A stretch of DNA of 64,000 nt, taken from IMG/VR virus record IMGVR_UViG_3300014204_000111, positions 1 to 64,000 of that record. One strand, 5' to 3'. The notes under the pieces were generated by a model. The model ran no database searches. It was not told the origin of the DNA and saw nothing but the letters and a program-made list of their open reading frames with translations. This stretch comes from a virus (lineage: Duplodnaviria > Caudoviricetes). Positions 2,499 to 20,626 of this stretch are shown piece by piece. Every line of letters starts with the position of its first letter. Positions within the stretch are counted from its first letter, which is position 1. Both the position numbers and the translations under genes were made by a program.

Positions 2499-3016
2499 TA
2501 ACAACCACAATTACATTTTGGTGTATTAAGAGGAATTCGACTAGTTTTAAGTTCAATCGGTTTGTTTTCAATTTGAGTCTCAAGTTGTTCAATTTGTTTG
2601 GCAGGAATACCTTGTGCTAAAAATGTTTCTTCTTCATTCTTGGCAAAATTTTCAGCCGTAGTTCCATTCATTTTAACCAAATCTTCTTCAAATTGTTCTT
2701 TATCATCTGCTTCGTCTGATTTAAAAGAATTGATAAATGACTTCAGACTTCCAAATTGGAATCTACTACGAGACATTTCTTCAATCATCCTGCCAAGCAC
2801 AAGTTCTTTAGGCGAAACATTAATTTGAGCACAAGCAGCAAAATCTCCGCTTCTAATTGCTTCCATCATAATTTCTGCATTTGCTGTCACAGATTTTACT
2901 TGTACAAATCCAATAGTTACAGCTTCATCAGCACTAACAGATAACTCAATGTTAGTATCAGATGGCATTGTTTTTAACAGTTCATCAACCAATACTTTTA
3001 TATTATGAAGTTTCAT
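2498..3016 (-). CDS. Hypothetical protein between the two nrdJ parts
   Basis: AAGGAAGG RBS before MKLHNI; acidic; ends KCNCGC. Confidence 0.7.
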   Translation of the reverse strand: MKLHNIKVLVDELLKTMPSDTNIELSVSADEAVTIGFVQVKSVTANAEIMMEAIRSGDFAACAQINVSPKELVLGRMIEEMSRSRFQFGSLKSFINSFKSDEADDKEQFEEDLVKMNGTTAENFAKNEEETFLAQGIPAKQIEQLETQIENKPIELKTSRIPLNTPKCNCGC

Positions 3017-5696: not shown

Positions 5697-5706
5697 TATT
5701 TTACCC
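5697..5706 (-). promoter_or_regulatory. GGGTAAAATA candidate -10 box
   Basis: Same motif recurs at several gene boundaries; 16 nt upstream of ATG 5680. Confidence 0.45.
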
Positions 5707-6393
5707 TTTACTGTAATTTTTATAAAAATTTATAATAGAAGAATCTGCAACTCTCGAAGTCAAAAATTTATAATCTACATCAAATTGCTCTAATGGAGCA
5801 AGCCAGGAAATATTCTCTTTATGTCTGATATAAATCATATCTTTTACTAAAGCGTTAGTTTCTATAAGTCCATCTCTTCCATATCTCTCAATATATTTAG
5901 AGAGAAAATCACCATCTTCTCCACACATTTTTTTTGAGTCATATTTTGTTGTAATACTACTTCTATAAGAATGTCCAGTACCAAAACAACTACGTCCAGA
6001 TAATATCTGGTAAGTTTGTATATTAATATCGTATACGCACATAGTTTTCATATTAAGAAAGTTAGTAGATTGATTTTTTTGAAAAAAATTCATTACTTTT
6101 TCAACGTATTGTGGACTATAATAATCGTCAGAATCTATATTGATAATTACATCTCCAGTACTATAATGAAGAGCAATGTTTCGTTTACGTCCTATATTCA
6201 ATGATTTATTATCAACACTAGGAATAATTATGTGTCTAGCATTTTTAAACTTATAGTTAACAGAACTTTGTTCTTCAACTATTATATGTTCTATATTTTG
6301 ATATGTTTGATTAGTAACAATACTTTCTAAAATAGGCTTAAACTTATCTCTTTTCCAAATAGGAGTAATTAATGTAGCCTTAATAAGACTCAT
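5701..6393 (-). CDS. Glycosyltransferase family 2 (GT-A)
   Basis: LITP, NQTYQNIEHIIV, GRKRN, IDSDDYY (DxD), GED. Confidence 0.9.
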   Translation of the reverse strand: MSLIKATLITPIWKRDKFKPILESIVTNQTYQNIEHIIVEEQSSVNYKFKNARHIIIPSVDNKSLNIGRKRNIALHYSTGDVIINIDSDDYYSPQYVEKVMNFFQKNQSTNFLNMKTMCVYDINIQTYQILSGRSCFGTGHSYRSSITTKYDSKKMCGEDGDFLSKYIERYGRDGLIETNALVKDMIYIRHKENISWLAPLEQFDVDYKFLTSRVADSSIINFYKNYSKG

Positions 6394-7744
6394 TAAAAGC
6401 TTCTTCTAAATTAAATTTTTTATTCCACGGAATTTCACAATATACTCTAATTAAAGGTTCTGTACCTGATTTTCTAAACATAATCCAACCCGTCATAAAT
6501 GGGCATTTAATTCCATCTACATCTTGTTCTGGAGAACCTAATTTACCCACCTGATTTTCAAATTTAGTTTTTATTTCTTCTATAGACATATTTGTGTGAA
6601 TATCAAATCTACTATATCTCATTCTTCCGTATTTTTCTCTTATGTTTTGTAATTCGCTTCTTAATCCTCCTTGCCTAGATTCATTAAAATTCATAAGTAT
6701 TATTGCAGCCATTATACCGTCTCTATCACTAAAGAATGGATGGAATGCCAATCCTCCAGATTCTTCTCCTGCAACAACATTATCATCTGAATTTATATAT
6801 AATGGGGAGATATGTTGGAACCCTATCTTACTCCATACAAAATTAATATTTTCTTCATTACAAAATTTTGGTATAATATTTGACATATTATAAGTGGCGA
6901 TAACTTTAGATAACATTTTTTTGGAAGTAGCTTTAATAAAAAGAAGGAAAGTTTCACTAGGAGTTAGTGGTTCTCCATCGATAAACATTAATAATCTATC
7001 TCCATCACCATCTAAAGCAAAAGCAATTCCTGTTTGTGCTGTTTCAAATGGTAGAATAATATTATCTGGCTTAGGTTCTAATGAGTTATTTTTAGCTGGT
7101 GTATTATCTTCAATAACCTGACCTTTAAAAATTTGGTTAATATATCCTTTTGCCGCACCATTTAGTGTACTAAAAGAATATTTATCTTTAGTATATGAAG
7201 GAAGTACTGTTGATGAATATATACTGGCTAAATCAATCATTTTAACATTATAGTCGCGGGTATTTAAATTAAGAGATAAAACATCTTTCTCATCTATTAA
7301 AGTACCTTTTGGAGTTATAAATTTAACACCTACATAATTATCTGGGTTATGTGATGCTGTAAACATTATTCCAAATGCTTTTCTACTTTTACAGAGACGG
7401 CAAAGCATTGGGGTAGTTATTGGTATATTATTAATCAAAGATGATTTGGATTCCCATGAATCTGTGATATCTAAAAGTATCTTCATTCTTCTTGCTAAAA
7501 TTGCACTTTGTGGTCTAGCGTCAAATCCAATACAGATATCTGATGCAAGGTCTGTATCATCATTTAATCCAGGTGGCTGTGTAATATTAAAATTACCAAT
7601 AGTAGCATGGAAAGAATTAAAACTATATTTTTCTCTTGTTGAATTTCGTCTAATATAAGTAAAAAATTTTGCAATTAAAAAGTCGATTTCATTATCGTTG
7701 ATAGAAGAATCCCATCTTGCTCCAGCAGTTCCTAAAACTAACAT
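6380..7744 (-). CDS. manB: Phosphomannomutase/phosphoglucomutase
   Basis: GFDAR, TASHNP (phospho-Ser), DGDGDR, GEESGG, RKSGTEPLIRVY. Confidence 0.92.
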   Translation of the reverse strand: MLVLGTAGARWDSSINDNEIDFLIAKFFTYIRRNSTREKYSFNSFHATIGNFNITQPPGLNDDTDLASDICIGFDARPQSAILARRMKILLDITDSWESKSSLINNIPITTPMLCRLCKSRKAFGIMFTASHNPDNYVGVKFITPKGTLIDEKDVLSLNLNTRDYNVKMIDLASIYSSTVLPSYTKDKYSFSTLNGAAKGYINQIFKGQVIEDNTPAKNNSLEPKPDNIILPFETAQTGIAFALDGDGDRLLMFIDGEPLTPSETFLLFIKATSKKMLSKVIATYNMSNIIPKFCNEENINFVWSKIGFQHISPLYINSDDNVVAGEESGGLAFHPFFSDRDGIMAAIILMNFNESRQGGLRSELQNIREKYGRMRYSRFDIHTNMSIEEIKTKFENQVGKLGSPEQDVDGIKCPFMTGWIMFRKSGTEPLIRVYCEIPWNKKFNLEEAFNESY

Positions 7745-8646
7745 ATAGTCCCCTTTTGTAGTACAGAATTAGATGCAATACATATATTTTTTAATTGACA
7801 ATTATCTTGAATAATTGATGATTGTGCGATAATACATTTATCAATAATAACATTAGCTCCAATTGTAACATTTTTATGAATAACACTATTATTTATTACA
7901 GCAGTTGGATGAATTTTACAATTTTTATTTATAACTGATTCTCCACCATTAAGTCTGATTTGTGTCTCTCTATAAGACTCAATAGTTCCTATATCAGAGA
8001 AATTACCACCTTGAAATATTCTAATACCTGGAGGACAAAAAGCAAATATATCCTTTTCTATAGAAAAGAAATCAGGATAATCTTTTGTGAATTGAAGGTA
8101 TTTTTCAGAATTAATAATATAAATTCCTGTTGATACTAAACTTTTGAAACTTTTAGGAGAAGAAGGTTTTTCTATAAAATCAGTCATAATCCAATTATTA
8201 TGTTGTATATTACCATATCTACAAGGATTATATTTTTCAGAAGCCATAATTGTACACCACTCAGGTGTAGTATTATGTATATTTGACATAACAGATAAAT
8301 CATTGAAAAAATTAAGCACTAAATCTCCGTTAAGAATAAGAGGATTCTTAAAATCAGATTGCTGCAAAGTAAATCTAATTGCCCCTCCTGTTCCTAAAGG
8401 TTTATCTTCTTTAACAATAGATGTATAATGCATATTTGATATATCTATACAATCTGACTTATATCCAGCAGAAATAATTACAGGAATATTATGGCAAATA
8501 ATATTATCAACAGAATTGATAATATATTCCAAATATGTTTCTGATAAAAAAGGAATCATTAATTTAGGCATATCATAAGTAAGAGGTCTAAGTCTAACAC
8601 CCTCTCCTCCTGCTAATATAATAATACCATCAACTTTAGAATTCAT
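7738..8646 (-). CDS. Sugar-1-phosphate nucleotidyltransferase, probably mannose-1-P guanylyltransferase
   Basis: LAGGEGVRLRPLT..PK, EDKPLGTGGA, NGD, FIEKP, C-terminal hexapeptide repeats; sits between manB and gmd. Confidence 0.88.
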   Translation of the reverse strand: MNSKVDGIIILAGGEGVRLRPLTYDMPKLMIPFLSETYLEYIINSVDNIICHNIPVIISAGYKSDCIDISNMHYTSIVKEDKPLGTGGAIRFTLQQSDFKNPLILNGDLVLNFFNDLSVMSNIHNTTPEWCTIMASEKYNPCRYGNIQHNNWIMTDFIEKPSSPKSFKSLVSTGIYIINSEKYLQFTKDYPDFFSIEKDIFAFCPPGIRIFQGGNFSDIGTIESYRETQIRLNGGESVINKNCKIHPTAVINNSVIHKNVTIGANVIIDKCIIAQSSIIQDNCQLKNICIASNSVLQKGTIC

Positions 8647-9676
8647 GAGTTCTTCCTTGCTCTATTCTTAAAATATCTTCTTTAACCATTTCAGTAATCA
8701 TGTATTTAAAAGTAATTTTATCTGGATTCCAATTTAATTGCTTTTTAGCTAAACTTGGGTCAGAATAAAGATATCCGACTTCTTCTGGTCTAAATAAATC
8801 GGGGCTTACTTCTACACGAAGCTCTCCATTTGTATTATACCCCTTTTCATCAGTACCTAAACCAGTCCATATAATATCTTCTCCGATAGTTAAGAATGCA
8901 GCTTCACATAATTGCTTAACTGTGAATGTCTTGCCAGTACCTATTACAACAGTATCAATATTAGATTGATTTACTAATTGCCACATACATTCAACATAAT
9001 TTTCTGCATGACCCCAATCTCTAGAAGCATTTAAATTACCTAATGTAAGATATTGACTTTGCTTTTTAGCTATTTGAGCTACTTTATGGGTTATCTTTCT
9101 CGTTACAAATTGAATACCTCTACGGGGAGATTCGTGATTAAATAAAATACCTTGATAAGTTTTTAATCCATAAGCATTAGCATAGTGTTTAGTAGCATAA
9201 TATCCCATAAGTTTTGCAAGACCGTAAGGACTTGCGGGCATGAATGGAGTATTTTCATTTTGAGGATAGAAGAGAGAAGAGTTAGAACCATATAATTCTG
9301 AGGTACTTGCTTGATAAAATATTGTCTCTTTAGAATAATTCTTAAGAGCCTCCAAAAGTCTTACAACTCCAGTCCCATTAATATCTATAACAGATTCAGG
9401 AGTAATAAACGAAGAGGCAACATAAGAATTAGCAGCCAAATTAAATAAATAAGTTGGCTGGGTAGTTTTAACTATCTTATTGATAGATTGAGTATCTGTC
9501 AAATCACCTTCTACTAACTGAAAATTAGGATGTTTAATACAATTTTCTAAACGCCATAAATTAGGTGCGGCAGACCTACGATACATTCCAACTACTTTGA
9601 GAGATTGATTTAACAATAACTCTGAAAGATAGCTCCCATCCTGGCCCGAAACTCCAGTCACTAAAGCTGTTTGCAT
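8636..9676 (-). CDS. gmd: GDP-mannose 4,6-dehydratase
   Basis: ALVTGVSGQDGSYL, QASTSELYG, SPYGLAK, GILFNHESPRRG, RDWGHA. Confidence 0.96.
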   Translation of the reverse strand: MQTALVTGVSGQDGSYLSELLLNQSLKVVGMYRRSAAPNLWRLENCIKHPNFQLVEGDLTDTQSINKIVKTTQPTYLFNLAANSYVASSFITPESVIDINGTGVVRLLEALKNYSKETIFYQASTSELYGSNSSLFYPQNENTPFMPASPYGLAKLMGYYATKHYANAYGLKTYQGILFNHESPRRGIQFVTRKITHKVAQIAKKQSQYLTLGNLNASRDWGHAENYVECMWQLVNQSNIDTVVIGTGKTFTVKQLCEAAFLTIGEDIIWTGLGTDEKGYNTNGELRVEVSPDLFRPEEVGYLYSDPSLAKKQLNWNPDKITFKYMITEMVKEDILRIEQGRTHEF

Positions 9677-10791
9677 TATAAACTCCTTGTTCCATCAAAA
9701 TATGTATTAATATTATCAATTAAATAATTTCTTTCTCTATTAAGAGAATCAAGTTTTGTAATATAATCTAATAATTCTTCTGGAGTTGCGGTTTGATATT
9801 TTTTTAAATTGACAAATTCCTGATGATTCCAAAGTTTAGTAACAACTTCTTTTAATTTTATCTTTGCTTCTTCATAATCTGAAACAGATATAGATAGATT
9901 ATTATCATATACCTTACATTTAGGGAACGAGATAAAACTCATTTCTCTCATTTCTAATTTATTAATTAACATATATTGCATTTGTAAATTCGTCATTAAA
10001 AGATGTGTTGTCTCTTTATCTTTGTGATTCTGTAATTTCAACTCAGTTGTATAACTAGCGTCAATTATATCTCCAAGAGACATAGTAGATATTGGTGTAG
10101 ATATCTCACTATTTCTAGTTGGTTTAACTGCAATAATCTCCATCATATTTTTAGGCCAAGCAAAATTAACCTTTGCACCGAATAATTTAGCGACAAACTT
10201 AAATTTATCTGTCCAATGAGCATAAGGAAATTCATAAGGATATACAACATCATTAATTTTAAACCCAAAATTTATCAGTATATTACATAGTTCATTATCG
10301 CTGGGAATCATAAAATTATATTTTGGGTCTAACATAGGAAGCGTTCCCCAAAGTTTATAATAAATAGAATTAGTGTTAGGAGTCGCTAAAAAGATTAGCT
10401 TGCCTCTGGGTTTAAGAGCCTTATAACATATAGATATCATATCAAGAGGATTTGGTAAATGTTGAATAACTCCTCTCATGATAATAACATCAAAAACATT
10501 TTCTTTTAATTCTTCTGCTTTCACCAAAGTAATATTTTTTGTATATTTTGCAGCATACTTGGATATTTCTATTCCATATTTTTCATAATATTTAAATACA
10601 CCTTTAATGTCTGCTTTAAAAAAGTCTCCGGTTCCACACCCTACATCTAAAACATTTCCTTTTAACGGAATTTTGTGTTCAATTCTTTTAAGTTCGTTTT
10701 GATATGTACTAATTCTATTTATATCTCGTAAATTATAAGATTTAAAATATTCTTCGTCATATAGTTCTTGTTGTTTTTCTTTATTAAACAT
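9676..10791 (-). CDS. Class I SAM-dependent methyltransferase with fused C-terminal helical domain
   Basis: VLDVGCGTG, YGIEIS, FDVI..VIQHL, LKPRG; C-terminal SLGDIID..LWNHQE..LNRERNYLIDNIN resembles DUF4254/DUF6165-type domains. Confidence 0.85.
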   Translation of the reverse strand: MFNKEKQQELYDEEYFKSYNLRDINRISTYQNELKRIEHKIPLKGNVLDVGCGTGDFFKADIKGVFKYYEKYGIEISKYAAKYTKNITLVKAEELKENVFDVIIMRGVIQHLPNPLDMISICYKALKPRGKLIFLATPNTNSIYYKLWGTLPMLDPKYNFMIPSDNELCNILINFGFKINDVVYPYEFPYAHWTDKFKFVAKLFGAKVNFAWPKNMMEIIAVKPTRNSEISTPISTMSLGDIIDASYTTELKLQNHKDKETTHLLMTNLQMQYMLINKLEMREMSFISFPKCKVYDNNLSISVSDYEEAKIKLKEVVTKLWNHQEFVNLKKYQTATPEELLDYITKLDSLNRERNYLIDNINTYFDGTRSL

Positions 10792-12148
10792 TTTGTGTTA
10801 ACCCACCTGATTTTTCTAATAATTTTTCTAATTCTTCTAAGGTTATAATTTTTACTAAATCATATTTTTCAAATTCTTTTAATAATAGAAGTACATTTTC
10901 ATATGTTTTTCTAAAATTTGTGGCTATATTGTCTATTGTCGTATAATTGTTTTGTATATACGATAATATTCTCTCTTTTTCAACTAATGAAAAAATATCT
11001 GACATAAAATTGTATAATCCAAAATTTGAAAAACATGGCATTTCATTAATTATCGATTTTGCATAATCATCTTGTTCATAATATTTAAATATATCTATCA
11101 GACTAGTTACAGTTAACATTATATTATCTTCATCATATTTATTATCTACATGAGTATGATATTCTAAGAAAGGTTTACCAAATTCATTACTAGAATCAGT
11201 CACTCTATTAAACGAATAACAAGGTATGCGAATAAAATTTAATACTCTATCATCATTACCAATATACCTAAGATTATCTGTTAATATTAAATCTTTTTTA
11301 TTACAAGATATTATATTATTATTTATAAATAATCCACTTCCATTCTTAGCAATTTTATTTATCACTTCTCTTAGAGGATTATGCCAAGAATAAGGTTGTT
11401 GACAAATTAATGGGCCATTTACTCCTATCATATCCAAAAATATAGCTATTTTTATATTTTCTTTAGAAAATTTATGTAACATACACAAAGAGCCTATGGT
11501 TTCTGGTAAAATCCAAAATCTATAAGTATATTTGTTATCTTTTATATTTAAGGCTAAATCAACTAAACCAGCGACACCTGATAATCCATCATTAACCTGA
11601 AATGGATGGTCTAAATGAGCCATAACCAAAATTTCTTCTTTTCTTTTACCTGGAATAATATATTCTAAAACTTTTAAAGACCCTTTTGAAAATTTAGATT
11701 TTATTTTTACAGTAAAATCATCACAAAATTCTTGTGATACAGCAGTTGGTCTAAATTTATCTGCACAACAAAATCCCCAATCATCTTTATAATAAGAGAA
11801 CTTAAAAGGAATACCCCAATTACATTCAGGATTACTATAAATTTTTTCGTTAACTTCTTGCCAAGTAGCATGAGGAATATTTACTGATTGAGAATACGAC
11901 ATAACATGTAATCCATGATTTTGAATATCAATAAGTTTTTGTTTAGTTTTATTATTTTTAATATAAGCCTCTGTTACAGTCCATTTTTTAGGTACTGTCC
12001 AAGTTTCTGTTTTGTATCCACTTGGAAATGAATGTATTTTTGAACCAGGAAGAAGAGATTGAAGATAAGTAATAGCTTCATCATATCCGTCAGAAACCAA
12101 ATCTCTTCTAGTATCCCATAATTTTTCAATTATCTCTTTAAATAACAT
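10784..12148 (-). CDS. DUF4910-type aminopeptidase-like (M28 fold) polysaccharide-biosynthesis protein
   Basis: WTVPKKW, LHVMSYS, SYYKDDWGFC, AHLDHP..NDGLSG, PETIGS, EYHT..D. Confidence 0.85.
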   Translation of the reverse strand: MLFKEIIEKLWDTRRDLVSDGYDEAITYLQSLLPGSKIHSFPSGYKTETWTVPKKWTVTEAYIKNNKTKQKLIDIQNHGLHVMSYSQSVNIPHATWQEVNEKIYSNPECNWGIPFKFSYYKDDWGFCCADKFRPTAVSQEFCDDFTVKIKSKFSKGSLKVLEYIIPGKRKEEILVMAHLDHPFQVNDGLSGVAGLVDLALNIKDNKYTYRFWILPETIGSLCMLHKFSKENIKIAIFLDMIGVNGPLICQQPYSWHNPLREVINKIAKNGSGLFINNNIISCNKKDLILTDNLRYIGNDDRVLNFIRIPCYSFNRVTDSSNEFGKPFLEYHTHVDNKYDEDNIMLTVTSLIDIFKYYEQDDYAKSIINEMPCFSNFGLYNFMSDIFSLVEKERILSYIQNNYTTIDNIATNFRKTYENVLLLLKEFEKYDLVKIITLEELEKLLEKSGGLTQNV

Positions 12149-12939
12149 TAAATCACCTTCCAATAATCTGGAAATTCTGCTACTTGTTCTGTGTTATTAT
12201 ATAATTCTTCATGCATTTTTTCACCCCTTCTTAGCCCTATAGTATTTATAATTGCATTGGGGTTAATAGAAGAGACTACATCTTTTAATTTAACACAATT
12301 CATCTTAGGAATATAAATTGCAGCCTCTTGAGTACTTACATTATCTAATATAAATTTTGAAGCTTTTTCTAATGTTATATAATAACGAGTTGATTCTAAA
12401 TCAGTAACTGATATAATATTATTATGTCTAAATTTTTCTATGATTGAACCAGAAGACCCCAAAAGGTTTCCCAACCTCACTCCCCAAAATAAAGTTTTTT
12501 TATCTCCTTTATTGTTATTAGCATTCATCCATAGTTTTTCTGCTACAAATTTACTAGAACCATAAAGAGAAGTTGCATTAACTGCTTTATCGCTACTAAT
12601 AAAACACGCAGAAGTTACATTGTTACAAATACAAGCCTCTATGACATTAGATGTTCCATCTATATTTGTTTTGATGACTTCACTAGGGTCGTATTCGCCG
12701 GTCTCAATGTGTTTTAATGCAGCACAGTGAATAACAAAATCAACACCTTCAGTTGCTCTTATAATTCTATCCTTATCTCTTATATCACCTAATAAATATC
12801 TAACATCTGGATAAGTTTGTCTCATTTTCCAATGTTTTAATTCATCTCTAGAGAAAACACGAATAGTATTATCTTTATCTATAGCTTTAACAAGTTCAGA
12901 ACCTAATGAACCACAACCACCTGTAATAAGAATTACCAT
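12148..12939 (-). CDS. PseB/CapD-family UDP-GlcNAc 4,6-dehydratase
   Basis: ITGGCGSLG, FSRDELK, HCAALKH, SSDKAV, YGSSK, GLRRGEKMHEEL; shorter than typical PseB. Confidence 0.88.
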   Translation of the reverse strand: MVILITGGCGSLGSELVKAIDKDNTIRVFSRDELKHWKMRQTYPDVRYLLGDIRDKDRIIRATEGVDFVIHCAALKHIETGEYDPSEVIKTNIDGTSNVIEACICNNVTSACFISSDKAVNATSLYGSSKFVAEKLWMNANNNKGDKKTLFWGVRLGNLLGSSGSIIEKFRHNNIISVTDLESTRYYITLEKASKFILDNVSTQEAAIYIPKMNCVKLKDVVSSINPNAIINTIGLRRGEKMHEELYNNTEQVAEFPDYWKVI

Positions 12940-13622
12940 TTAACATCCTTTACTGATTTACTATTTTTTAAATTACCATCAGATAAATCTATAATATTCA
13001 TATTATATATATCTATCATTTGATTTAACATTGGTATGCAATAATATTGATATTCTGTCACTGGGTAACGAAATTTTTTAGTATCTATTATTGAATATAT
13101 AGACTCATCTTCATTTAGTCCTTTATAATATACCCTTTCTTTTTTACACATATCTATTCCACAAAGATATACATCTTCATAGCCTAGTGTATAGGCTAAA
13201 TCAAGAGCGAAAGTTGCTGAAGAAAAATGTCCATATAATTTTTTATAACTACGATTTTTTAAAAGAAGCTCTTTACTTAATACACAACAAGATTCATTAT
13301 TTCTAAAGTGAGGAAATTTAATAGGGTTATTTTGATATTCTGATAATGTCATCCATATAGGATACCATTTTGTATGAGGTTGAGAATCTTTAATCATATA
13401 ATCTAAATATCTTTTGGTATTAGGTGTTGGTATATTAAACCATTCTTGTTTATTTGCTGCTCTATCCTGAGAAATCATATATGTGGCGTTAGGAACTAAT
13501 TTAATAGCTCCATTAATAACCATAATATTTTCAAATCTATCCAAATAAGGAATAATAGATAAAATGCTTGGGCCACTACCTAATATTAAAAGTTTATATG
13601 GAGATTTCGAAATAGTTATCAA
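12933..13622 (-). CDS. Maf/DUF115/Cst-like putative glycosyltransferase
   Basis: ILGSGPS, ING, SSATFALDLAYTLGYEDVYLCGIDM. Confidence 0.7.
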   Translation of the reverse strand: MITISKSPYKLLILGSGPSILSIIPYLDRFENIMVINGAIKLVPNATYMISQDRAANKQEWFNIPTPNTKRYLDYMIKDSQPHTKWYPIWMTLSEYQNNPIKFPHFRNNESCCVLSKELLLKNRSYKKLYGHFSSATFALDLAYTLGYEDVYLCGIDMCKKERVYYKGLNEDESIYSIIDTKKFRYPVTEYQYYCIPMLNQMIDIYNMNIIDLSDGNLKNSKSVKDVKW

Positions 13623-14790
13623 AAACCTCTCCTACATATTCAATGTCATCATCTGTCATTCCTTGGTGACAACCAATGTAAAAAGCTGTATCTACTAAAG
13701 ATAAAGAGACTGGAAGAGTTTTTTTTTCACGAATGTGTTTATAATCTGCTTCATAACAGTGACCATTATCAGTAGTTTGCACTAATTTATTGTTAGGGGC
13801 TTGTTTTATAATAGGTTGATTTAATATGGGCATTAAATCTCTGGTTTCAATTTGCCAATTATTCAAATGAGCTACTAATTTATCCTTTTTACCGTTTTTT
13901 ACAACAATAGGAAAGTTCATAAATGTATTTCCATGTTTTACTGGTAACTGAATGAATGAAGAATGTTGAGAAAGTCTATCCAAGAGTTTATGAGCAACTT
14001 TAATTTTAGCACCAATAATTTCATCAGCCCTTTCTGCTTGTGCTAATCCGAGAGCAGCCATATAATCTCCCATTTTAAATGAAAATCCAACCTTATCAAA
14101 GATGAATTTTTTACTTTTATCGTAAGTTTCATTTCTATTAGCTGTATATAAATTATTAGAGTCAGCTCTTCCGTGATTACAGATACTTTTTATCAAAGAA
14201 TTAAATCTCTTAGAGTTAGTACAGACCATACCACCTGAACCAGTTGTGATTTGATGTGCTGCATAAAAACTTAAACACATTAAATCTCCATAACCTGTTG
14301 TTGGCGCAAAAATACTTTCACAATTATCTTCTACTATTGGATTACTATCTGGCAATAAACAATCTCTATAATCAGGATGGTTAGCACTAATACCCATAAG
14401 ATTTACAGGACAAATAATATCATTTTGCGAAAACCGTAATTTGTGGAAACTCATATTATAAGTGTAAGGATTAACATCTACCAATTGTACTGGTAAATTA
14501 GCATTCCAAGCTGCAAAAATTGTGGAAATATATGTTGTTGCTGGACATAGAACTTTGTTTATTGAATGAGGATATACCATTTTTAAAACTTCAAATGATA
14601 GATGAAGAGCTGATTGACCACTATTTACAAATGTTCCATATTTCATCCCATGTTTATTAGCCACATAATTTTCAAATTGTTCTTGTATATTTCCTGGTGA
14701 AATCTTTCCGCTCTTAAGAACCTTTGTAACTGCATCTATCTCTTTATCTGTAATATCTACAGTTGCTAATCCAATTATTCGTTTGTCCAT
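13594..14790 (-). CDS. DegT/DnrJ/EryC1/StrS-family PLP enzyme, His-type (ColD/RfbH-like 3-dehydratase)
   Basis: VNSGQSAL, VEDNCE, SFYAAHQITTGSGG with His at the usual Schiff-base Lys position. Confidence 0.85.
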   Translation of the reverse strand: MDKRIIGLATVDITDKEIDAVTKVLKSGKISPGNIQEQFENYVANKHGMKYGTFVNSGQSALHLSFEVLKMVYPHSINKVLCPATTYISTIFAAWNANLPVQLVDVNPYTYNMSFHKLRFSQNDIICPVNLMGISANHPDYRDCLLPDSNPIVEDNCESIFAPTTGYGDLMCLSFYAAHQITTGSGGMVCTNSKRFNSLIKSICNHGRADSNNLYTANRNETYDKSKKFIFDKVGFSFKMGDYMAALGLAQAERADEIIGAKIKVAHKLLDRLSQHSSFIQLPVKHGNTFMNFPIVVKNGKKDKLVAHLNNWQIETRDLMPILNQPIIKQAPNNKLVQTTDNGHCYEADYKHIREKKTLPVSLSLVDTAFYIGCHQGMTDDDIEYVGEVFDNYFEISI

Positions 14791-15686
14791 TCTTTAATCC
14801 TTTTGTTAAATTGTTCTTTTAATGTAGCATCTTCTACGTTTATTTCTACAGCATTATCATGACCAAAAAGATAGTGCCAACCACTATAAGTTAAAGGTAA
14901 AATTTTGCTTCTAACGATGATAGATTTTTTCTGATGAAGTCCTGCTAGGAAAGAAATCCCACTATCAACTCCAATATAGTAATCTGCTAATCTAACTACT
15001 TCAGACCATTCTCTCCAAGAATAATCATCAATAATAAAATATGTATTATTTTTATTGATATAAGGAAATTGTTTAAAAATACTATCCTCTGGTAGTTGAT
15101 TGATTTGACAAGCATTAATTATAAAATTAAAATCTGATTGATAGTGAGCTATATCATTAACCATAGATGGTATTTTTTCTAAATCATATGGGTAACTTTT
15201 AGCAATCCAATCTATACAAATAGTTTTTCTTTTTGGTAAAGAATTTATTAATTTTGTAGCTTTTTCTGTATCTTTGTCAATTATATATATTTTATTGTCT
15301 ATATTCGTATCTATTGGTATATCAACCGGCTCTTTTGCAAAATCAAATAAGCTATATTTTTTGTTATTAATTTTATTCCAAAATTCATCTCTATCTAGTG
15401 AATGACAAATATATACTTTATCATAAGCCTCTTTTATTGCTGTATTATACATGTCACTAGATATGTGTTTTAAAATTTCCACCCTATCTTTACTTTGACG
15501 AACAGGTAATTTAGAGTAAGATTTAGTTATTAATATTCCAATATCAGGATTATAATCTAGTATATTTCTAAATTGTTCATCTGTATAAAATGTAACAAAA
15601 TGACCTTCATTTTTTAATGCCTTAACAATCTTTTGAGATAAAATTATATCTCCTCCTGAAAATGGCAAAACTATAGCTATATTCAT
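14775..15686 (-). CDS. GT9-like (heptosyltransferase fold) glycosyltransferase
   Basis: SGGDIILS near N-terminus, ADYYIGVDSGISFLAG. Confidence 0.75.
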   Translation of the reverse strand: MNIAIVLPFSGGDIILSQKIVKALKNEGHFVTFYTDEQFRNILDYNPDIGILITKSYSKLPVRQSKDRVEILKHISSDMYNTAIKEAYDKVYICHSLDRDEFWNKINNKKYSLFDFAKEPVDIPIDTNIDNKIYIIDKDTEKATKLINSLPKRKTICIDWIAKSYPYDLEKIPSMVNDIAHYQSDFNFIINACQINQLPEDSIFKQFPYINKNNTYFIIDDYSWREWSEVVRLADYYIGVDSGISFLAGLHQKKSIIVRSKILPLTYSGWHYLFGHDNAVEINVEDATLKEQFNKRIKEWTNE

Positions 15687-16642
15687 TTAAGTTTCTTTTT
15701 TATTGTCTTATATATTAAGTTAACATCATCCATTACTAAAGATTCAATATTTTTTGCTCCAAATGGATTATATTTATTACCAATTTCTGGATGTACTTTT
15801 ATTAATTCTTTGCTGAGAATCTCTACAATTGGTATATCCTTATTTGTTGCACAAACAGCCCAGCTTTGACCTGTGCAATAACTAATAAATAGTTTTCCAA
15901 TCTGCTTTACTCCATAAGTTGCTGCACCAAGCGGAAGGTCGCACATGATGTATGGATTATTTCCTCCAAGAGTTAATTTATTATAGAACTCTTTAGTTTT
16001 TTGTATATCTGACTTGGCATACATAAAGATTGTTTTAATCTTATCTTCTTTATAGAGTTTCTGAGCAAGAGAAATCATTTGTTCATTATTTATAGCTTTT
16101 GCAGCAGAACGAGCAAACATTTCTGAGCAAACATACTTTTGATTAGTGTCAATATTATTAGAAGCCCAATTATCCCATAATTTTTTATCTTCATCGGTTA
16201 AATTATATGAATTAGAATAACTATCTGTTTTGATAGGTAATTGTAAATTACATGCTTCTAAAAAACATTTAGCTTGATTACCATCATAACTTTGTTTAAT
16301 ATCCAAGATTTCATCTCTGTCTTCTCCAATTAATTTGATAATAACATCATATTCAGTATTATTTACTTTTAAAAAATCTTGTAAAATCTGTTTCTCTTTA
16401 TAATAATAATCAAATCCCTTACTACCTATATATTGAGGTAATATAGATTCGACAATAATCCATTTATCAATATTTGAAATATTATTAGCTACAGTGTCAT
16501 AATATGATTGTAAAATTAACCAATGTATTTGGCAATTAGGATATGCTTGCTTTATGTTTTCTAAAACAATAGACGCTAAAATAGCGTCTCCAACTGCTCC
16601 TAGAAGTACAATTAAAAAAGTTTTATTTTTTGAGTCTAGCAA
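15683..16642 (-). CDS. GT9-like glycosyltransferase
   Basis: LGAVGDAIL..IKQAYPNCQIHWL; close paralog of 18458..19501. Confidence 0.75.
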   Translation of the reverse strand: MLDSKNKTFLIVLLGAVGDAILASIVLENIKQAYPNCQIHWLILQSYYDTVANNISNIDKWIIVESILPQYIGSKGFDYYYKEKQILQDFLKVNNTEYDVIIKLIGEDRDEILDIKQSYDGNQAKCFLEACNLQLPIKTDSYSNSYNLTDEDKKLWDNWASNNIDTNQKYVCSEMFARSAAKAINNEQMISLAQKLYKEDKIKTIFMYAKSDIQKTKEFYNKLTLGGNNPYIMCDLPLGAATYGVKQIGKLFISYCTGQSWAVCATNKDIPIVEILSKELIKVHPEIGNKYNPFGAKNIESLVMDDVNLIYKTIKKKLK

Positions 16643-18461
16643 CAGCTTCTCCTATTAAATCATATGATTTAATGTCAATCACTTCAGTAGAATTATTATA
16701 ATGAGAGTCCTTCACTGTAATATTAGGTAAAACTTTAAGAACATCAGGATGAATTATTTCCAAAATAGGTGTATCAGATGTTTCACATACAGCCCACGTT
16801 TGAGCACTACTACATCCAATAAAAATAGAGCCTTGTTCTTTTATACCTTGAGCAACTTGAGCTAAAGACAAAGCGCAAAGGCGAATATTTTCAGAATTAT
16901 GTTTTGCATATCGTTTTGCTTGCTCAACAGAACAAGAGAATATAGATTTCTGACCAGTATCATCATATATTTTGTTTGCAAGATGGAAATATTCTGTAGG
17001 AGATAAAAGAGGAGTTGTACTAATAGGCAAAAACTCCCAAAAGATATATTTTTCTTGGTCTTTGACCCAATTTCTCCATTTGAGAATATCTTCCCTTAAA
17101 ATAGTGAAAGTTCCCTTCTTTTCTGCGATAGGAATAGAGACAAATCTATTTATATCTTTAATAGCAATTTCCATAATATTACCACCAGAATTTTTCCAAT
17201 TAGAACCATATTGTGTATTATCACATTCTCTTAAAACAATTAAGTTTGGTTTATGTTTTATTAATTCTCTCACTAATACTTGTTGTTTATCTATTTCATT
17301 TATAGGAGCGCCAAGAATATCATCTGCAATAATCCAGTTATCAACTCCCAGAATATTATCTGAAATTTTTGAGTATTTCTCTGCAATATACCAGTTAATA
17401 GTTGTCTTTGGATAAGCAAGTTTAATATTATTTACAACTACAGAATTACAAATTATATCACCTAAAGAGCCAAGAAGAAGAATATTAAATTCTTTGTCGT
17501 TAAAAGAAGGGACTATTGGAGCATTATTTTTCTGTATAATCTTTTTTTGAATAAATGGTTGATTTTTACGAGCACGACAATTTGCTTCATGAATTCTTTT
17601 TTGTTTATCTATTTCTTCTGCTTGTTTTCTTAATAAGGCGAGTCTTTTTTCTCTTATACTTATTGTTGGTACTGAAGACATAAGTGGTTCCTTTAAAATA
17701 AACTTATCATATTTTTCTTTTTTATCTATAATATATTGAGGTAATTCACTTAAAGGTGTAAACATACCAGGATATCTATCTGATGCAAAGTCTACTCCTT
17801 TTTTAATCTTTTCAGAAAGTTCATCTTTAATTTTACGCGTATTATATTCTTGGTGTGCCGCTGCTTCCATTTTATATTTTAATTTCTCAATATCATTAAC
17901 ATAAGCAAAGTGCCAACCAGCGTTATCAACAATATTCCAATCAATTGTATTACTATTTCTAAGATGAAAAGGATTGTATTTTTCTAATATGTCTTTAGTA
18001 AAACTTACCTGATATTGCCAAGGAATAAATTTTCCTGTATATTTATCATATAAGCGATTATTAAAATAATAATAATATAAACCAGAAATATATCTAAAAT
18101 TACCATATTGAGGTTTTTCTTTTAAAAATTCATCGGCATCAGACCAAATTATAATATCTTTTTTTGTGAGTAATGGTAAAAGTTGCTTTAAAGCTCCATG
18201 ATGAACTAGTTCTCTATTCCATGCTACGGAATTTTTTTTAAAAATCTCCTGTTCATCTCCGTCTAAAGACCCTAACTGAATATATATGATTTTATCTTTA
18301 TAGTGTCTAAACCGTTTAAAGTCAAAATTATAATCTTTTGGCAATCCTGAAGTAGTTTGATTAGACTCTATAATAACAAATTTATCAACAAACAAATGCT
18401 GCTCAAATCTTAATTCAAGCATATCATTTTCATTTAAAAATCTAAAGCAGTCGTAAATCAT
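16623..18461 (-). CDS. GT17-like domain fused to GT9-like domain
   Basis: N-terminal IYDCF..NE.DMLELR, FVIIESNQT, SDADE, GWHF; C-terminal LGSLGDII..IKLAYPKTTINW. Confidence 0.8.
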   Translation of the reverse strand: MIYDCFRFLNENDMLELRFEQHLFVDKFVIIESNQTTSGLPKDYNFDFKRFRHYKDKIIYIQLGSLDGDEQEIFKKNSVAWNRELVHHGALKQLLPLLTKKDIIIWSDADEFLKEKPQYGNFRYISGLYYYYFNNRLYDKYTGKFIPWQYQVSFTKDILEKYNPFHLRNSNTIDWNIVDNAGWHFAYVNDIEKLKYKMEAAAHQEYNTRKIKDELSEKIKKGVDFASDRYPGMFTPLSELPQYIIDKKEKYDKFILKEPLMSSVPTISIREKRLALLRKQAEEIDKQKRIHEANCRARKNQPFIQKKIIQKNNAPIVPSFNDKEFNILLLGSLGDIICNSVVVNNIKLAYPKTTINWYIAEKYSKISDNILGVDNWIIADDILGAPINEIDKQQVLVRELIKHKPNLIVLRECDNTQYGSNWKNSGGNIMEIAIKDINRFVSIPIAEKKGTFTILREDILKWRNWVKDQEKYIFWEFLPISTTPLLSPTEYFHLANKIYDDTGQKSIFSCSVEQAKRYAKHNSENIRLCALSLAQVAQGIKEQGSIFIGCSSAQTWAVCETSDTPILEIIHPDVLKVLPNITVKDSHYNNSTEVIDIKSYDLIGEAVARLKK

Positions 18462-19501
18462 AAATAGCTCTTTATCGCATTATATACGGGCATTATATCT
18501 GTTGTAACTAAAGATGTTACTTTCATTTGTCCAAACGGATTAAATTTAGCTCCAATTTCAGGATGTCTAGTAGCAGTTTTGTAATTGAGAACCTCGACAA
18601 TAGGTATTGACCTATTTGTGGCACAAACAGCCCATGTTTGTCCAGTACAATAGCTAACAAAAACACGGCCAACTTGATTTATTCCGTAAGTAGCTGCTCC
18701 TAAAGGTAAGTCACACATAATATATGAACCATCATTATTTTCTAAATCATAAAATTCTTTAGCACGAATTCTATCTGACTTAGAGTGCATAAAAATAGTT
18801 TTTACATTCTCTGTCTTATAAACCATATGAGCAAGATTAATCATAGACCAATTATTTAAGGTTGGGCCAGCAGAACGAGCAAACATTTCTGAACAAATAT
18901 ACTTCTGTTTAGTATCAATATTTTTAGACCACTCTTCCCAAAGCTCTTTATCTTCATTGGTTAAAACAAAAGAACCAGTTCTAATATTCTTACTAATAGG
19001 TAATTGTCTATTACAGGCTTCTAAAAAGCGTTCTGTTTGATTACCGTTATGATTTCCTAAACTAGTAATTCTTTTTCTATCAGGGCCAACAAGTACAACA
19101 ATTGAATCATAATGGACAGTATTTTGTTCTAAAAATGTTTTTAATAAAATAGGTTGCTTAGTAAAGTATGCTTTTTCAGAGTTAAGAAAACTTGGAACAA
19201 AAGATTCTAATATAAGCCATTTATCAACATCAACAATATTATGACTAATTACATTGTAATAATCTTTAAGTATTAACCAATGTATTTGACAACCAGGATA
19301 AGATTGCTTAATATTTTTTAAAACCGTTGAACCAAGAATAGCGTCTCCTACTGCTCCAAATAAAACAATTAAAACTGTTTGGATATTTTGTGGAGATACT
19401 AACCTTTTTCTAGAAGCTATTTGTTGTGCAAGATTTTTTTGAATTCTTAAATCTTGTGCTTGCTTTCTAGCTATTTCAAGTCTTCTTTCTCTTATATTCA
19501 T
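18458..19501 (-). CDS. GT9-like glycosyltransferase with basic N-terminal helix
   Basis: FGAVGDAILG..IKQSYPGCQIHWL; shares CSEMFARSA and CDLPLGAATYG with 15683..16642. Confidence 0.75.
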   Translation of the reverse strand: MNIRERRLEIARKQAQDLRIQKNLAQQIASRKRLVSPQNIQTVLIVLFGAVGDAILGSTVLKNIKQSYPGCQIHWLILKDYYNVISHNIVDVDKWLILESFVPSFLNSEKAYFTKQPILLKTFLEQNTVHYDSIVVLVGPDRKRITSLGNHNGNQTERFLEACNRQLPISKNIRTGSFVLTNEDKELWEEWSKNIDTKQKYICSEMFARSAGPTLNNWSMINLAHMVYKTENVKTIFMHSKSDRIRAKEFYDLENNDGSYIMCDLPLGAATYGINQVGRVFVSYCTGQTWAVCATNRSIPIVEVLNYKTATRHPEIGAKFNPFGQMKVTSLVTTDIMPVYNAIKSYL

Positions 19502-20169
19502 TTAATATGATACTCCGTTAAATATTTCATTGAAAGAGGGAATAATTTAGAAAGAATTGAGTGTATTTCATTAGCATATTCTCTAATTTCTATTTGAGCA
19601 TGATTATCCATTCTAAGTTTTAAAAATCTAGTCCAGTTAAAAAGATTAGCCGTACAATAGAAGCTAGTATATGTATTCAGAGGTAAAATCATTCGTGCTA
19701 CTTCTAAAGGACAACCTATAGAAATTAAATGTTGATAATTACTTTCGCATAAATCTGTAACTTGTTTTATAATTTCTCTCGTTGTATAGGCATTCTTTAA
19801 TTCTAATTTACCCGCTCCTTGACGAGAATCTTTGGTCTGTTCTTCAATTAACCTTGAAGTTTCGGGAATATAAAATTCGTCATAACAACGAGAAGAATAT
19901 CGTCCAGAAACTTCATTATAAGACATAGTTCTATGTCTCATCCATTGTCTTGCTGTAAAAAATGGAACTTTTACAAAAAATGTTGCAGTTAAATGCTCAA
20001 AAGGGGACGAATGCCCCATTTTAGCCATATATTTAATTAAAGCCTCATCGCTTTCTGGAGTTTGTTCTGTAGTTCTTTCTCCAACCTCAATACTTACTCT
20101 AGCTGCTTCTACTACTCTACCATCATTGCCCATATGGTCAACTAACTTTAAATATTTTTTTGATATCAT
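19498..20169 (-). CDS. thyX: Flavin-dependent thymidylate synthase
   Basis: AARVS, HSSPFEH, RHRTMSYNEVSGRY, EVARMILP, HAQIEIR. Confidence 0.96.
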   Translation of the reverse strand: MISKKYLKLVDHMGNDGRVVEAARVSIEVGERTTEQTPESDEALIKYMAKMGHSSPFEHLTATFFVKVPFFTARQWMRHRTMSYNEVSGRYSSRCYDEFYIPETSRLIEEQTKDSRQGAGKLELKNAYTTREIIKQVTDLCESNYQHLISIGCPLEVARMILPLNTYTSFYCTANLFNWTRFLKLRMDNHAQIEIREYANEIHSILSKLFPLSMKYLTEYHIK

Positions 20170-20626
20170 CAATAACCTCATTCATATTTATACAGTGTTT
20201 TTTAAAATCATCTATTTTAATAAGATAAAGTTTAGTAGAAGAGCCTTTATCTCCTCCAATCACCTTTTTTGTGGCAAGTAAGCAAATTTCTCTTAACTTA
20301 TCCACAGTAATAAAATAAGGAATTCCATCTATTCCGTGAACCCACCAATCTGCTGTAGTAACTACAAGTCCACTTTCTTCTCCTCTGCATTCATATTCAA
20401 TAGCCACATTTCCAGTTTTTGTAGCCATCAAATCATTTTTAACTTCAAAAGTAACATTTTTAGAATTATTACTAACATTCTCAAAAGTATCACTAACTAG
20501 AATATCATATTCTTTTGTTTTATTTGTAATAAAAACAAAGTCATCTAAATAACCTTTTAGAAGTTTTGTGACTTCTTCTTCAAAAGAAGCCCCATCTTTT
20601 AAATCTTTTTGAAATTGATAGTGCAT
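20138..20626 (-). CDS. PD-(D/E)XK-fold phage nuclease-like protein
   Basis: YDILV..FEVKND..TGNVAIEY..SGL..TTADWW. Confidence 0.65.
   Translation of the reverse strand: MHYQFQKDLKDGASFEEEVTKLLKGYLDDFVFITNKTKEYDILVSDTFENVSNNSKNVTFEVKNDLMATKTGNVAIEYECRGEESGLVVTTADWWVHGIDGIPYFITVDKLREICLLATKKVIGGDKGSSTKLYLIKIDDFKKHCINMNEVIDDIKKIFKVS

Follow-up and report, generated by a model that had tools for sequence, protein, structure and literature searches.

The presence in a phage genome of a long block of genes for sugar synthesis and glycan assembly raises the question of what such a virus would glycosylate, and with which sugars. The window analysed here, a stretch of 64,000 nucleotides with uniform G+C throughout, belongs to the complete genome of an uncultured phage (220,861 bp, direct terminal repeats, CheckV completeness 100%) that encodes a terminase, portal, major head protein and tail sheath. 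The terminal repeats, completeness, structural genes and even G+C, together with the recurrence of the cassette in a second phage, rule out a bacterial chromosome or chimeric contig and uphold the phage origin assumed in an earlier note on this DNA. The polymerase of the phage is of the DnaE type, with at most 32% identity to any phage record.

The cassette consists of 13 minus-strand ORFs (5701-19501) that overlap by 1-29 bases at every junction, counting the longest ORFs, and is flanked by thyX on one side and an nrdJ-like reductase gene on the other; the ORF map and family matches agree with the 13 overlapping glycan genes between thyX and nrdJ that the earlier note had described. The thyX gene (19498..20181, minus strand) overlaps the first cassette gene (18458..19501) and encodes a canonical ThyX, which passes the equivalog cut-off (TIGR02170, 178 bits; cut-off 88) and has an intact RHR..S..SGRYS motif, the same as in T. 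maritima ThyX. The NrdJ-like reductase (3003-5027) scores 357 bits for a cut-off of 400, and a 139-aa ORF lies between its gene and the GT2 gene of the cassette. Genes for replication and nucleotide metabolism run in the same direction as the cassette and overlap with it, and the head genes are ~140 kb away. Across the whole genome, sugar genes are confined to this one block, outside which there was no other GT2 gene and no GT1/GT4 gene (PF00534 without a match).

Predicted nucleotide-sugar supply and tailoring

All cassette genes described below are on the minus strand. A phosphohexomutase of the PGM/PMM superfamily (6380..7744; PF02880, PF02878 and PF00408, domains I, III and IV) has archaeal GlmM as its best NCBIfam model (148 bits, under its cut-off) and is ManB-like by context. 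The adjoining gene (7738..8646) encodes a sugar-1-phosphate nucleotidyltransferase with a C-terminal left-handed beta-helix (PF00483, 84 bits), whose best NCBIfam model, mannose-1-P guanylyltransferase, scores 102 bits, far under cut-off, and so does not fix its specificity; context makes it ManC-like. GDP-mannose 4,6-dehydratase, Gmd (8636..9676), matches PF16363 over its full length (371 bits) and TIGR01472 at 360 bits, just under its cut-off (415), and is 71% identical to its orthologue in a relative, phage G001. An early-type promoter box lies within the 3' end of gmd (8862-8834, minus strand). Of the ManB, nucleotidyltransferase and Gmd named in the earlier note all three families were matched, with the ManB and ManC identities resting on context.

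The DegT-family PLP/PMP enzyme (13594..14790; PF01041, 176 bits) is of the His type and resembles sugar 3-dehydratases of the ColD/E1 kind, its top PDB matches being ColD and E1. Its His179 aligned to ColD His188, an alignment verified with the mutant chains 3b8x and 2r0t (H188N and H188K), and 38 of 39 aligned homologues carry His at this position and none Lys. The scores to ColD and to CDP-sugar E1/RfbH are near-equal and do not tell GDP from CDP. A short (263 aa) homologue of PseB/FlaA1-like UDP-HexNAc 4,6-dehydratases (12148..12939; PF02719, 234 bits) scores 265 bits with TIGR03589, below its cut-off of 408, and matches H. pylori FlaA1 (2gn4) at E 3e-61, keeping the D-K and Y..K motifs, so that both the His-type DegT enzyme and the PseB-like dehydratase recognised earlier were confirmed. 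The pseudaminic acid pathway is not complete, with the PseB-like enzyme only, a DegT enzyme without the aminotransferase Lys, a sub-threshold Maf-like protein, and neither NeuB nor a CMP-sugar synthetase (CTP_transf_3) found in the whole genome, where a GmhA-type SIS protein was not found either.

From the Gmd and DegT family matches, which bear out the earlier proposal of a GDP-sugar route of the phage's own with a His-type 3-dehydratase-like enzyme, the phosphohexomutase, nucleotidyltransferase and Gmd are predicted to yield GDP-4-keto-6-deoxymannose, from which the DegT enzyme would take off the 3-hydroxyl to give GDP-4-keto-3,6-dideoxyhexose; both steps are well supported from sequence. 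The first four steps of the GDP-L-colitose pathway of Gram-negative O-antigens (ManB, ManC, Gmd, ColD and ColC) are thereby predicted in the cassette. The pathway differs in its last enzyme, as a ColC-type 3,5-epimerase/4-reductase was not found in this cassette or in that of G001, the only other SDR being the PseB-like protein; with this absence and the about equal ColD and E1/RfbH scores, the final sugar is not specified. Since the conserved core is without a ColC-type reductase, we propose that the 4-keto group would be reduced by a bifunctional Gmd or a host enzyme. The PseB-like enzyme may supply a UDP-6-deoxy-HexNAc branch, present only in the 221-kb phage and not in its relative.

Two further proteins may modify the sugar, or else the glycan once assembled, and their family matches agree with those assigned earlier. 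One is a class I SAM methyltransferase (9676..10791; PF13489, 63 bits, residues 26-179) with an uncharacterised C-terminal half of ~190 residues, the PDB chain matches being limited to the methyltransferase core. The other is a DUF4910/DUF2172 metallopeptidase-like protein (10784..12163; PF16254, 110 bits; PF09940, 61 bits), which had no homologue among 50,697 phage records; DUF4910 is a recurring companion of sugar-modification genes, with a role proposed from context (PMC4000134).

Glycosyltransferase domains and membrane components

The cassette encodes seven glycosyltransferase domains, namely one GT2, one GT17, four very divergent GT9-like domains and one weak Maf/Cst-like domain. The last cassette gene (5701..6393) encodes a small soluble GT2 (PF00535, 46 bits, the only GT2 match of the genome) and is the least conserved, with 33% identity to the G001 orthologue. 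The GT17 domain (residues 2-209; PF04724, 59.9 bits) is fused via a basic helix to a GT9-like domain (residues ~325-612) in the product of 16623..18461, which is 61% identical to its G001 orthologue. The C-terminal half of this fusion shares 28-30% identity with the two GT9-like proteins encoded at 15683..16642 and 18458..19501 and matches TIGR02193 over residues 328-375 (E 2e-5).

The assignment of the GT9-like proteins draws on fold and remote homology, as a whole-genome PF01075 search returned nothing even at E<=1. For 15683..16642, a profile search reaches PF01075 proteins and the AF2 model (pLDDT 71.6) has a GT-B fold; the Foldseek check suggested earlier gave GT9 chains for all of the top eight PDB matches (E 5e-11 to 4e-8; 3tov, 1psw, 2h1h, 2h1f, 2gt1 and 6dfe), at TM-scores of just 0.33-0.43. 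Its paralogue (18458..19501) is 54% identical to it, has no Pfam match and a weak heptosyltransferase I match (E 0.002), retains the G-D motif, and begins with a strongly basic helix of 42 residues (pI 11.9, low hydrophobicity). Together with the C-terminal half of the fusion, these proteins match the heptosyltransferase I model TIGR02193 at 17-24 bits against a cut-off of 185, and the weak matches fall precisely on the segment of the N-terminal G-D motif, in which both G and D are conserved in every one of the six sequences aligned and which in GT9 contains the catalytic Asp (WaaC Asp13). These sequence comparisons tie the three paralogues to GT9, with the qualification that membership is below curated thresholds. 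The fourth copy (14775..15686), 60% identical to its G001 orthologue, matched no Pfam or NCBIfam family and is assigned by an Atlas look-alike search, in which its nearest clusters are viral GT9 (score 0.97; TM 0.79), and by an alignment at 17% identity; its G-D motif aligned as well. Among 5.8 billion proteins searched, the GT9-like family comprises four only. These proteins share with GT9 heptosyltransferases the GT-B fold, the N-terminal G-D catalytic motif and their size; they differ in scoring below curated thresholds and in belonging to a phage that has no ADP-heptose genes.

The remaining domain (12933..13622) is an MptE-like/DUF115-type protein that stays below the PF01973 threshold (33.9 bits; cut-off 34.6) and may be a transferase of the Maf or Cst (GT42-like) type. 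A two-sequence profile matches the sialyltransferase Cst-I (2p2v, E 0.0017), the nearest Atlas clusters are viral and their MptE-like share is low, and the structure prediction reaches a pLDDT of just 43.5. The putative identity of this protein as a Maf/Cst-like transferase is weak. Of the seven domains counted in the earlier note, the GT2 and GT17 stand as they were, the four GT9-like domains need the qualification given above, and the Maf/Cst-like domain is weak. The seven soluble domains would assemble an oligosaccharide. With at most two donors made by the phage, most transferases must draw on host nucleotide sugars, and any heptose donor would be host-made given the lack of a GmhA-type gene.

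The hydrophobicity scan and family searches also agree with the earlier description of an all-soluble cassette without export or priming parts. No membrane-span-like hydrophobic 19-mer was found in the cassette except in the first beta-strand of Rossmann folds, and a Kyte-Doolittle scan of the whole genome, a crude test, found no ORF with four or more hydrophobic segments and so no polytopic membrane protein. The cassette differs from Wzx/Wzy or ABC surface-polysaccharide loci in that no flippase, polymerase, ligase or priming transferase was found.

A second phage with the cassette and comparison with known systems

The survey of cluster conservation proposed in the earlier note yielded a syntenic 11-gene cassette in one other phage, G001 (202 kb), without orthologues of the PseB-like gene (12148..12939) and of one GT9-like gene (18458..19501). 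Median identity between the two phages is 60% for the cassette and 37% for 81 other shared genes (Mann-Whitney p 6e-6), only one of which reaches 60%, a difference that points to strong selection or recent exchange. In G001 the cassette is on the late-gene strand, within an accessory island that separates the major head protein gene from the head-tail adaptor gene and that also holds a Mom-like protein (of a DNA-modification family), an endolysin, a redoxin and thyX. The latter is ~0.5 kb from the cassette, set apart from it by one small gene, and its side and strand are the reverse of those in the 221-kb phage. As the island is a mixed one, the position of the cassette among G001 structural genes may mean little. 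New here are the syntenic cassette in a second phage, its high conservation over the backbone and its different genomic place.

The cassette is a phage-encoded and putatively mobile system for glycan synthesis, and phage sugar cassettes of such a kind are already known. Sugar-gene ('LPS') islands of T4-like cyanomyoviruses, such as P-SSM2, have been known since 2005 (PMC1079782). The islands of P-SSM2, S-H68, S-B05, S-B43, RN05-S and RB11-B are alike in having a sugar-tailoring block and several soluble glycosyltransferases in lytic phages without export genes. Homologues of the His-type DegT enzyme and of GT17 are at most 4 kb apart in at least five cultured cyanophages and one 642-kb megaphage, and in the S-H68 DegT enzyme, too, the catalytic position is occupied by His. 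The differences are an unrelated phage lineage, a route that starts from GDP-mannose, and the GT9-like expansion and GT17-GT9 fusion particular to the cassette, whose DUF4910 and Maf-like proteins had no match in cultured phages.

PBCV-1 glycosylates its capsid autonomously in the cytoplasm, with a bifunctional Gmd that reduces its own product (PMC4691112), a precedent for the reductase missing from the cassette of the 221-kb phage. PBCV-1 and the mimiviruses resemble the cassette in having a virus Gmd and soluble transferases that act on a structural protein with no cellular export, the PBCV-1 glycan being O-methylated (PMC4691112); they are eukaryotic viruses that share no cassette ancestry and are without a 3-dehydratase or GT9-like enzymes.

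Candidate acceptors

We tentatively favour, as the leading explanation, a self-contained and horizontally mobile glycosylation cassette acting in the host cytoplasm during lytic infection, with virion protein(s) as the most likely acceptor. The acceptor is the least certain step. Virion proteins would be glycosylated before or during assembly, and the particle, if this is true, would carry a sugar coat that differs from strain to strain. The evidence leans mildly towards the virion through the site of the cassette in G001, the lack of an integrase, and a protein with 36 consecutive serines, for which all six Ser codons are used, in the variable tail region of the 221-kb phage. Judged by its sequence, this protein is a candidate acceptor; it is absent from G001, which retains the cassette. 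In mycobacteriophages Che8, Corndog and Myrna, O-glycans are reported at the C-termini of capsid and tail-tube subunits (Freeman et al., 2023, as summarised in PMC12619734). The favoured mechanism is alike in using phage-encoded, soluble, cytoplasmic glycosyltransferases with the glycan on the particle; it differs in that the capsid and the small post-sheath protein of the 221-kb phage, the latter taken as the tail tube, have no Ser/Thr-rich C-terminal tails of that kind, in that the cassette encodes a complete sugar pathway as well as seven transferase domains, and in that it is not beside structural genes, being ~140 kb from the capsid and tail genes here, with the G001 copy between the major head protein and adaptor in its mixed island.

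The earlier note had argued from the lack of membrane parts to a cytoplasmic acceptor, most plausibly the virion; the lack itself stood and the inference is weaker than claimed. GT9 enzymes such as WaaC/WaaF are soluble or peripheral LPS-core enzymes without membrane spans, LPS core is made without a flippase or priming enzyme of its own, and the product exits via host MsbA/Lpt, so that an all-soluble phage set is equally compatible with remodelling of the host envelope and the absence of membrane parts is not decisive. Here the transferases would extend the LPS/LOS core or a lipid-linked glycan at the inner membrane face, with export by host MsbA/Lpt or Wzx, and the altered surface, if this were true, would block superinfection or stop progeny sticking to debris. 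We regard this as less likely than glycosylation of the virion. In its favour, the GT9-like domains are nearest to WaaC/WaaF by fold and profile, LOS loci hold a comparable mix of GT9, GT2 and Cst-like enzymes, the predicted 3,6-dideoxyhexose belongs to a class of classic O-antigen sugars, and in the 221-kb phage the cassette points the same way as the early or middle genes for replication. Against it, the GT9-like proteins are under every curated GT9 threshold, the presence of LPS in the host is not certain, and the G001 cassette is within the late structural region. Seroconversion usually pays in the prophage state, and with no integrase or resolvase found in the whole genome lysogenic conversion is unlikely; of the host LPS-core alternative raised earlier, it is this form that is weakened, whereas envelope remodelling fits the all-soluble set. 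A host-surface role has been suggested for the 24 sugar genes of cyanophage P-SSM2 (PMC1079782).

Hypermodification of DNA, with sugars on a modified base against restriction as in T-even phages, RB69/DLP3 and RL38J1, would explain the proximity of thyX, reductase and polymerase. The overlap of the cassette with thyX, the closeness of thyX to it in G001 and the Mom-family protein of the G001 island speak for this explanation, which we nevertheless consider very improbable. The nucleotides 5hmC, 5hmU or 5hoC are made by ThyA-family homologues; neither a ThyA homologue (PF00303) nor a TET/JBP dioxygenase (PF12851) was found in the genome at E<=0.1 with positive controls, and with the canonical ThyX these absences weaken the DNA alternative of the earlier note. 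Seven transferase domains and a dideoxy sugar also exceed known DNA glycans, and we know of none on that scale. Phages with poly-glycosylated DNA encode NDP-sugar synthesis themselves, along with several transferases, next to a homologue of thymidylate synthase, the DNA glycosyltransferases being GT-B enzymes of the GT1/GT4 kind (PMC13326640), unlike the present genome with its lack of a PF00534 match. The RB69, DLP3 and RL38J1 clusters thus resemble the cassette in gene content and neighbourhood; they differ in needing a ThyA homologue that makes 5-hydroxy-dCMP (PMC13326640), where the neighbour of the cassette is a canonical ThyX.

Another cytoplasmic acceptor, such as a host or phage non-structural protein, a small molecule, a free oligosaccharide or RNA, seems improbable. 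No acceptor gene is physically linked to the cassette in both genomes, and the highly basic, non-hydrophobic helices before two GT9-like domains could bind nucleic acid or an acidic partner; specific evidence was not found, however, and we know of no phage in which a pathway with seven transferases acts on targets of this kind.

Glycosylation of the virion also has against it the placing of the cassette in the 221-kb phage, with replication and nucleotide-metabolism genes and ~140 kb from the head genes, and the LPS-core nature of GT9. GT9 enzymes are by definition LPS-core transferases, and the family includes WaaC/WaaF as well as the protein-directed BAHT enzymes TibC/AAH. A more specific form of virion glycosylation, possible though somewhat doubtful, is that a strictly lytic giant phage other than an actinobacteriophage coats its particle, for example on the 36-serine protein, with a glycan of hepta-saccharide scale in which a 3,6-dideoxyhexose is included, that the phage-only heptosyltransferase-like branch represents protein O-glycosyltransferases, and that the cassette has been exchanged between lineages as a unit.

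Gene content and sugar route of the cassette

The 220,861-bp record carrying the cassette has direct terminal repeats and is 100% complete according to CheckV. Genes in the window include those for a DnaE-type polymerase, helicase, primase, SbcCD and UvsX-like proteins, and beyond it the same genome (G000) encodes a terminase, portal, major head protein, head-tail adaptor and tail sheath. An earlier note made from the sequence alone had raised the prospect of a bacterial chromosome or chimeric assembly; this is ruled out by the even G+C content along the window (0.27-0.35), by the terminal repeats and completeness, and by retention of the cassette in a relative phage, so that, structural genes included, the contig is that of a phage. 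The DnaE-type polymerase shares at most 32% identity with its best match among 50,697 phage records, which places the phage in a lineage without a cultured relative.

The cassette comprises 13 minus-strand ORFs running from 19501 down to 5701 and overlapping at every junction. Its first gene is overlapped by thyX (19498-20181), which scores above the equivalog cut-off, and a 139-aa ORF separates its end from the NrdJ-like reductase. Family searches bore out the gene list of the earlier note, namely GT2, PGM/PMM-superfamily mutase, NTP_transferase, Gmd (371 bits), methyltransferase, DUF4910/DUF2172, PseB-like, DegT and GT17; the nucleotidyltransferase joins an NTP_transferase domain to a beta-helix tail, and family matches leave the C-terminal half of the class I methyltransferase unexplained. 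In the adjacent NrdJ-like reductase region (1899-5027, minus strand) the gene looks split in two pieces: the ORF at 3003-5027 (minus) is a near full-length match to NrdJ_Z, that at 1899-2510 (minus) matches a B12-dependent reductase over its final ~190 residues (E 2.5e-12), and between them sits a 184-aa ORF without a family (2498-3052, minus). The two pieces are separate in the relative phage too.

Assignment of the mutase as ManB and of the nucleotidyltransferase as ManC is by context only, their specificities being left unsettled by the family models. Among solved structures the DegT enzyme comes closest to ColD (2gms) and the CDP-sugar dehydrase E1. In the alignment with ColD its His179 falls on His188, which stands in for the Schiff-base lysine; the register is fixed by the H188N and H188K mutant chains among the matches. 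This histidine is identical in the relative phage, and among 39 homologues with identities as low as 32% it is present in 38, with lysine in none. Given a His-type DegT enzyme alongside Gmd, the expected product of their successive action would be GDP-4-keto-3,6-dideoxyhexose. Since the cassette contains no ColC-type reductase/epimerase, its only extra SDR being the PseB-like enzyme, and since the relative phage dispenses with the latter, we infer the reduction step: the 4-keto group would be reduced by Gmd itself, as the PBCV-1 Gmd reduces its own product (PMC4691112), or alternatively by a host enzyme. The short PseB-like dehydratase matches H. pylori FlaA1 (E 3e-61) and retains the catalytic D-K and Y..K residues; as a hint to the host it yielded only matches of at most 36% identity in unrelated phyla among 185,579 genomes. 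DUF4910 proteins, which have no assigned reaction, are known to accompany genes for sugar modification (PMC4000134), and cultured phages lack them (no homologue in 50,697 phage records).

TRANSFERASES

Three of the transferase domains are paralogues, encoded at 15683-16642, at 18458-19501 and in the C-terminal half of 16623-18461 (54% and 28-30% identity). None has a Pfam match, PF01075 being absent from the whole of G000 even at E<=1, and their family numbers four proteins among 5.8 billion. A five-member profile searched against 1.84 billion representatives gave weak remote matches only, genuine PF01075 proteins matched over their full length among them, and each paralogue has a weak heptosyltransferase I match across its N-terminal G-D segment, the G-D motif being invariant among the aligned sequences. 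The eight best Foldseek PDB matches of an AF2 model of the 15683-16642 protein (pLDDT 71.6) were all GT9 chains. The three paralogues are thus GT9-like in fold and motif, yet they fall below the curated GT9 thresholds. The fourth of the GT9-like domains counted in the earlier note (14775-15686) is a putative one, assigned from an Atlas search for look-alikes, in which viral GT9 clusters came nearest, and from an alignment at 17% identity.

The protein encoded at 12933-13622 may be Maf/Cst-like, a weak assignment that draws on a sub-threshold MptE-like score (33.9 bits; cut-off 34.6) and on a two-sequence profile matching Cst-I (E 0.0017). A role for this MptE-like protein near thyX as a pterin kinase was rejected, as its only PDB match is a sialyltransferase and its gene lies amid sugar genes. 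Elsewhere G000 contains no other GT2 or GT1/GT4 gene, and it lacks NeuB, CMP-sugar synthetase and GmhA-type genes, from which it follows that the seven transferase domains must for the most part use host nucleotide sugars. Homologous, highly basic and weakly hydrophobic helices (consensus I-R-E-[RK]-R-L...R-K-Q-A; pI 11.9 for the N-terminal helix) precede two of the GT9-like domains, at 19376-19501 and ~17487-17666 (both minus strand), and their low hydrophobicity makes them unlikely membrane anchors.

Conservation and movement of the cassette

The relative phage, a 202,677-bp IMG/VR record that is 91% complete, carries eleven syntenic cassette genes, the second GT9-like paralogue and the PseB-like gene being missing. 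Whole-genome comparison gave 92 reciprocal best pairs, 11 in the cassette and 81 elsewhere, with a median identity of 60% (33-71%) for the former and 37% for the latter (Mann-Whitney p 6e-6). The best-conserved genes are those of the cassette and of the major head protein (62%), the only one of the 81 other pairs to reach 60%; the polymerases are 44% identical. The gene order of the head and tail modules is preserved. The relative's cassette is on the late-gene strand, inside a 21-kb insertion that separates the major head protein/HNH genes from the head-tail adaptor; in G000 these genes are within ~4.5 kb of each other. A CHAP/PG-binding endolysin directly precedes the cassette in this accessory island, which also carries a redoxin, thyX and a Mom-family protein (PF25680, 50 bits; relative phage 64,322-65,173, or L002:1382-2233 on that stretch of its genome, plus strand). 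An IMPDH/GMP-reductase-family gene (249 bits; G000 166,088-167,191, minus strand, or L038:16088-17191 on that stretch of G000) is a lone minus-strand gene between the head genes and the head-tail adaptor gene, its homologue in the relative phage being ~130 kb distant.

Judged from these comparisons, the cassette behaves as a mobile, strongly conserved unit, and that it moved yet is unusually well conserved argues for its selection as a unit. Its link to replication genes in G000 is not fixed, and that to structural genes in the relative is suggestive but not clean. Queried with alignments of the GT9-like and DegT proteins, viral contigs yielded the relative alone, and a metagenome scan returned the same sequence (100% identical); the one further copy in these collections, a third instance of the GT9-like and DegT genes (P0002, P0104), is on a 5.6-kb contig. 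A DegT relative is encoded at 26 further viral loci, where essentially no other cassette gene is found (one Gmd match and two weak PseB-like matches). A smaller module, a His-type DegT and a GT17 homologue at most 4 kb apart, occurs in at least five cultured cyanomyoviruses and one megaphage, inside well-known sugar islands.

In kind the cassette is an export-free phage sugar island, as known from cyanomyoviruses since 2005, and no new category. It differs from those islands in lineage, in its GDP-mannose/ColD-type route without a reductase, in its DUF4910 protein, GT17-GT9 fusion and GT9-like expansion, and in its clear mobile-unit behaviour and better conservation than the phage core. With a defined sugar route, seven transferases, no export parts and a relative in which it has moved, it offers a compact and complete test case that includes uncharacterised enzymology, namely that of DUF4910, of the highly divergent GT9-like enzymes and of a His-type dehydratase that has no reductase to partner it.

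Candidate acceptors and promoter boxes

Phage-made glycans could protect particles against antibodies, nucleases or proteases, adjust host recognition or alter the host surface. To our knowledge their chemistry has been worked out just for mycobacteriophage virions and a few DNA modifications; the mechanistic options for the cassette are illustrated by those virions, chlorovirus capsids and glycosylated phage DNA. The earlier note reasoned that a system lacking membrane parts builds on a cytoplasmic acceptor, most plausibly the virion. Its premise agrees with a Kyte-Doolittle scan, a crude test, which found no span in the cassette except the first strand of Rossmann folds and no ORF with at least four hydrophobic segments in the whole of G000. 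The deduction is not decisive, however, because GT9 enzymes are themselves soluble or peripheral and the LPS core leaves the cytoplasm via host MsbA/Lpt, needing no dedicated flippase or priming enzyme. Modification of the host envelope is accordingly a rival, consistent with the early-side position of the cassette in G000 and its LOS-like mix of transferase families, and such a role was proposed for the P-SSM2 sugar genes by Sullivan et al. (PMC1079782). We nevertheless consider it rather unlikely, as no integrase or resolvase was found in G000, the host may lack LPS and the cassette is placed among late genes in the relative.

The virion is our tentative choice, a possible acceptor favoured by the precedents, by the cassette's position in the relative and by a 209-aa protein (G000 193,553-194,182, plus strand; L040:3553-4182 on that stretch of G000) with 36 consecutive serines at residues 87-122, encoded with all six serine codons. 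This ORF has no PHROG family and is tightly coupled to its neighbours; the part of the late operon in which it lies, upstream of the tail sheath, is variable. Against the virion, the relative has neither this ORF nor a poly-serine tract and nevertheless keeps the cassette, and no Ser/Thr tails were seen at the capsid and tail-tube C-termini. Phage DNA as acceptor is very improbable: in the known sugar-bearing phage DNAs, a ThyA homologue or a methyltransferase and TET pair creates the glycosylated hydroxyl (PMC13326640; 10.1101/2023.12.21.572611), but G000 has neither and its ThyX is canonical. Some other acceptor seems improbable.

A sigma-70 promoter and terminator scan gave 129 hits against 110.5 +/- 10.8 in shuffles, that is, no excess. 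The phage's early-type promoter box (GTTT-N16-GGGTATAAT) is on the plus strand in 36 of its 39 occurrences in G000, at 50-130 kb. As the cassette has no copy upstream of it and the relative phage does not use the box, it gives no reading of cassette timing; the one full copy in the cassette (8834-8862, minus strand) falls within the gmd 3' end, just ahead of the nucleotidyltransferase gene. A GGGTAWAAT box at 5698-5706 (minus strand) overlaps the end of the GT2 gene, namely its final codons and stop.
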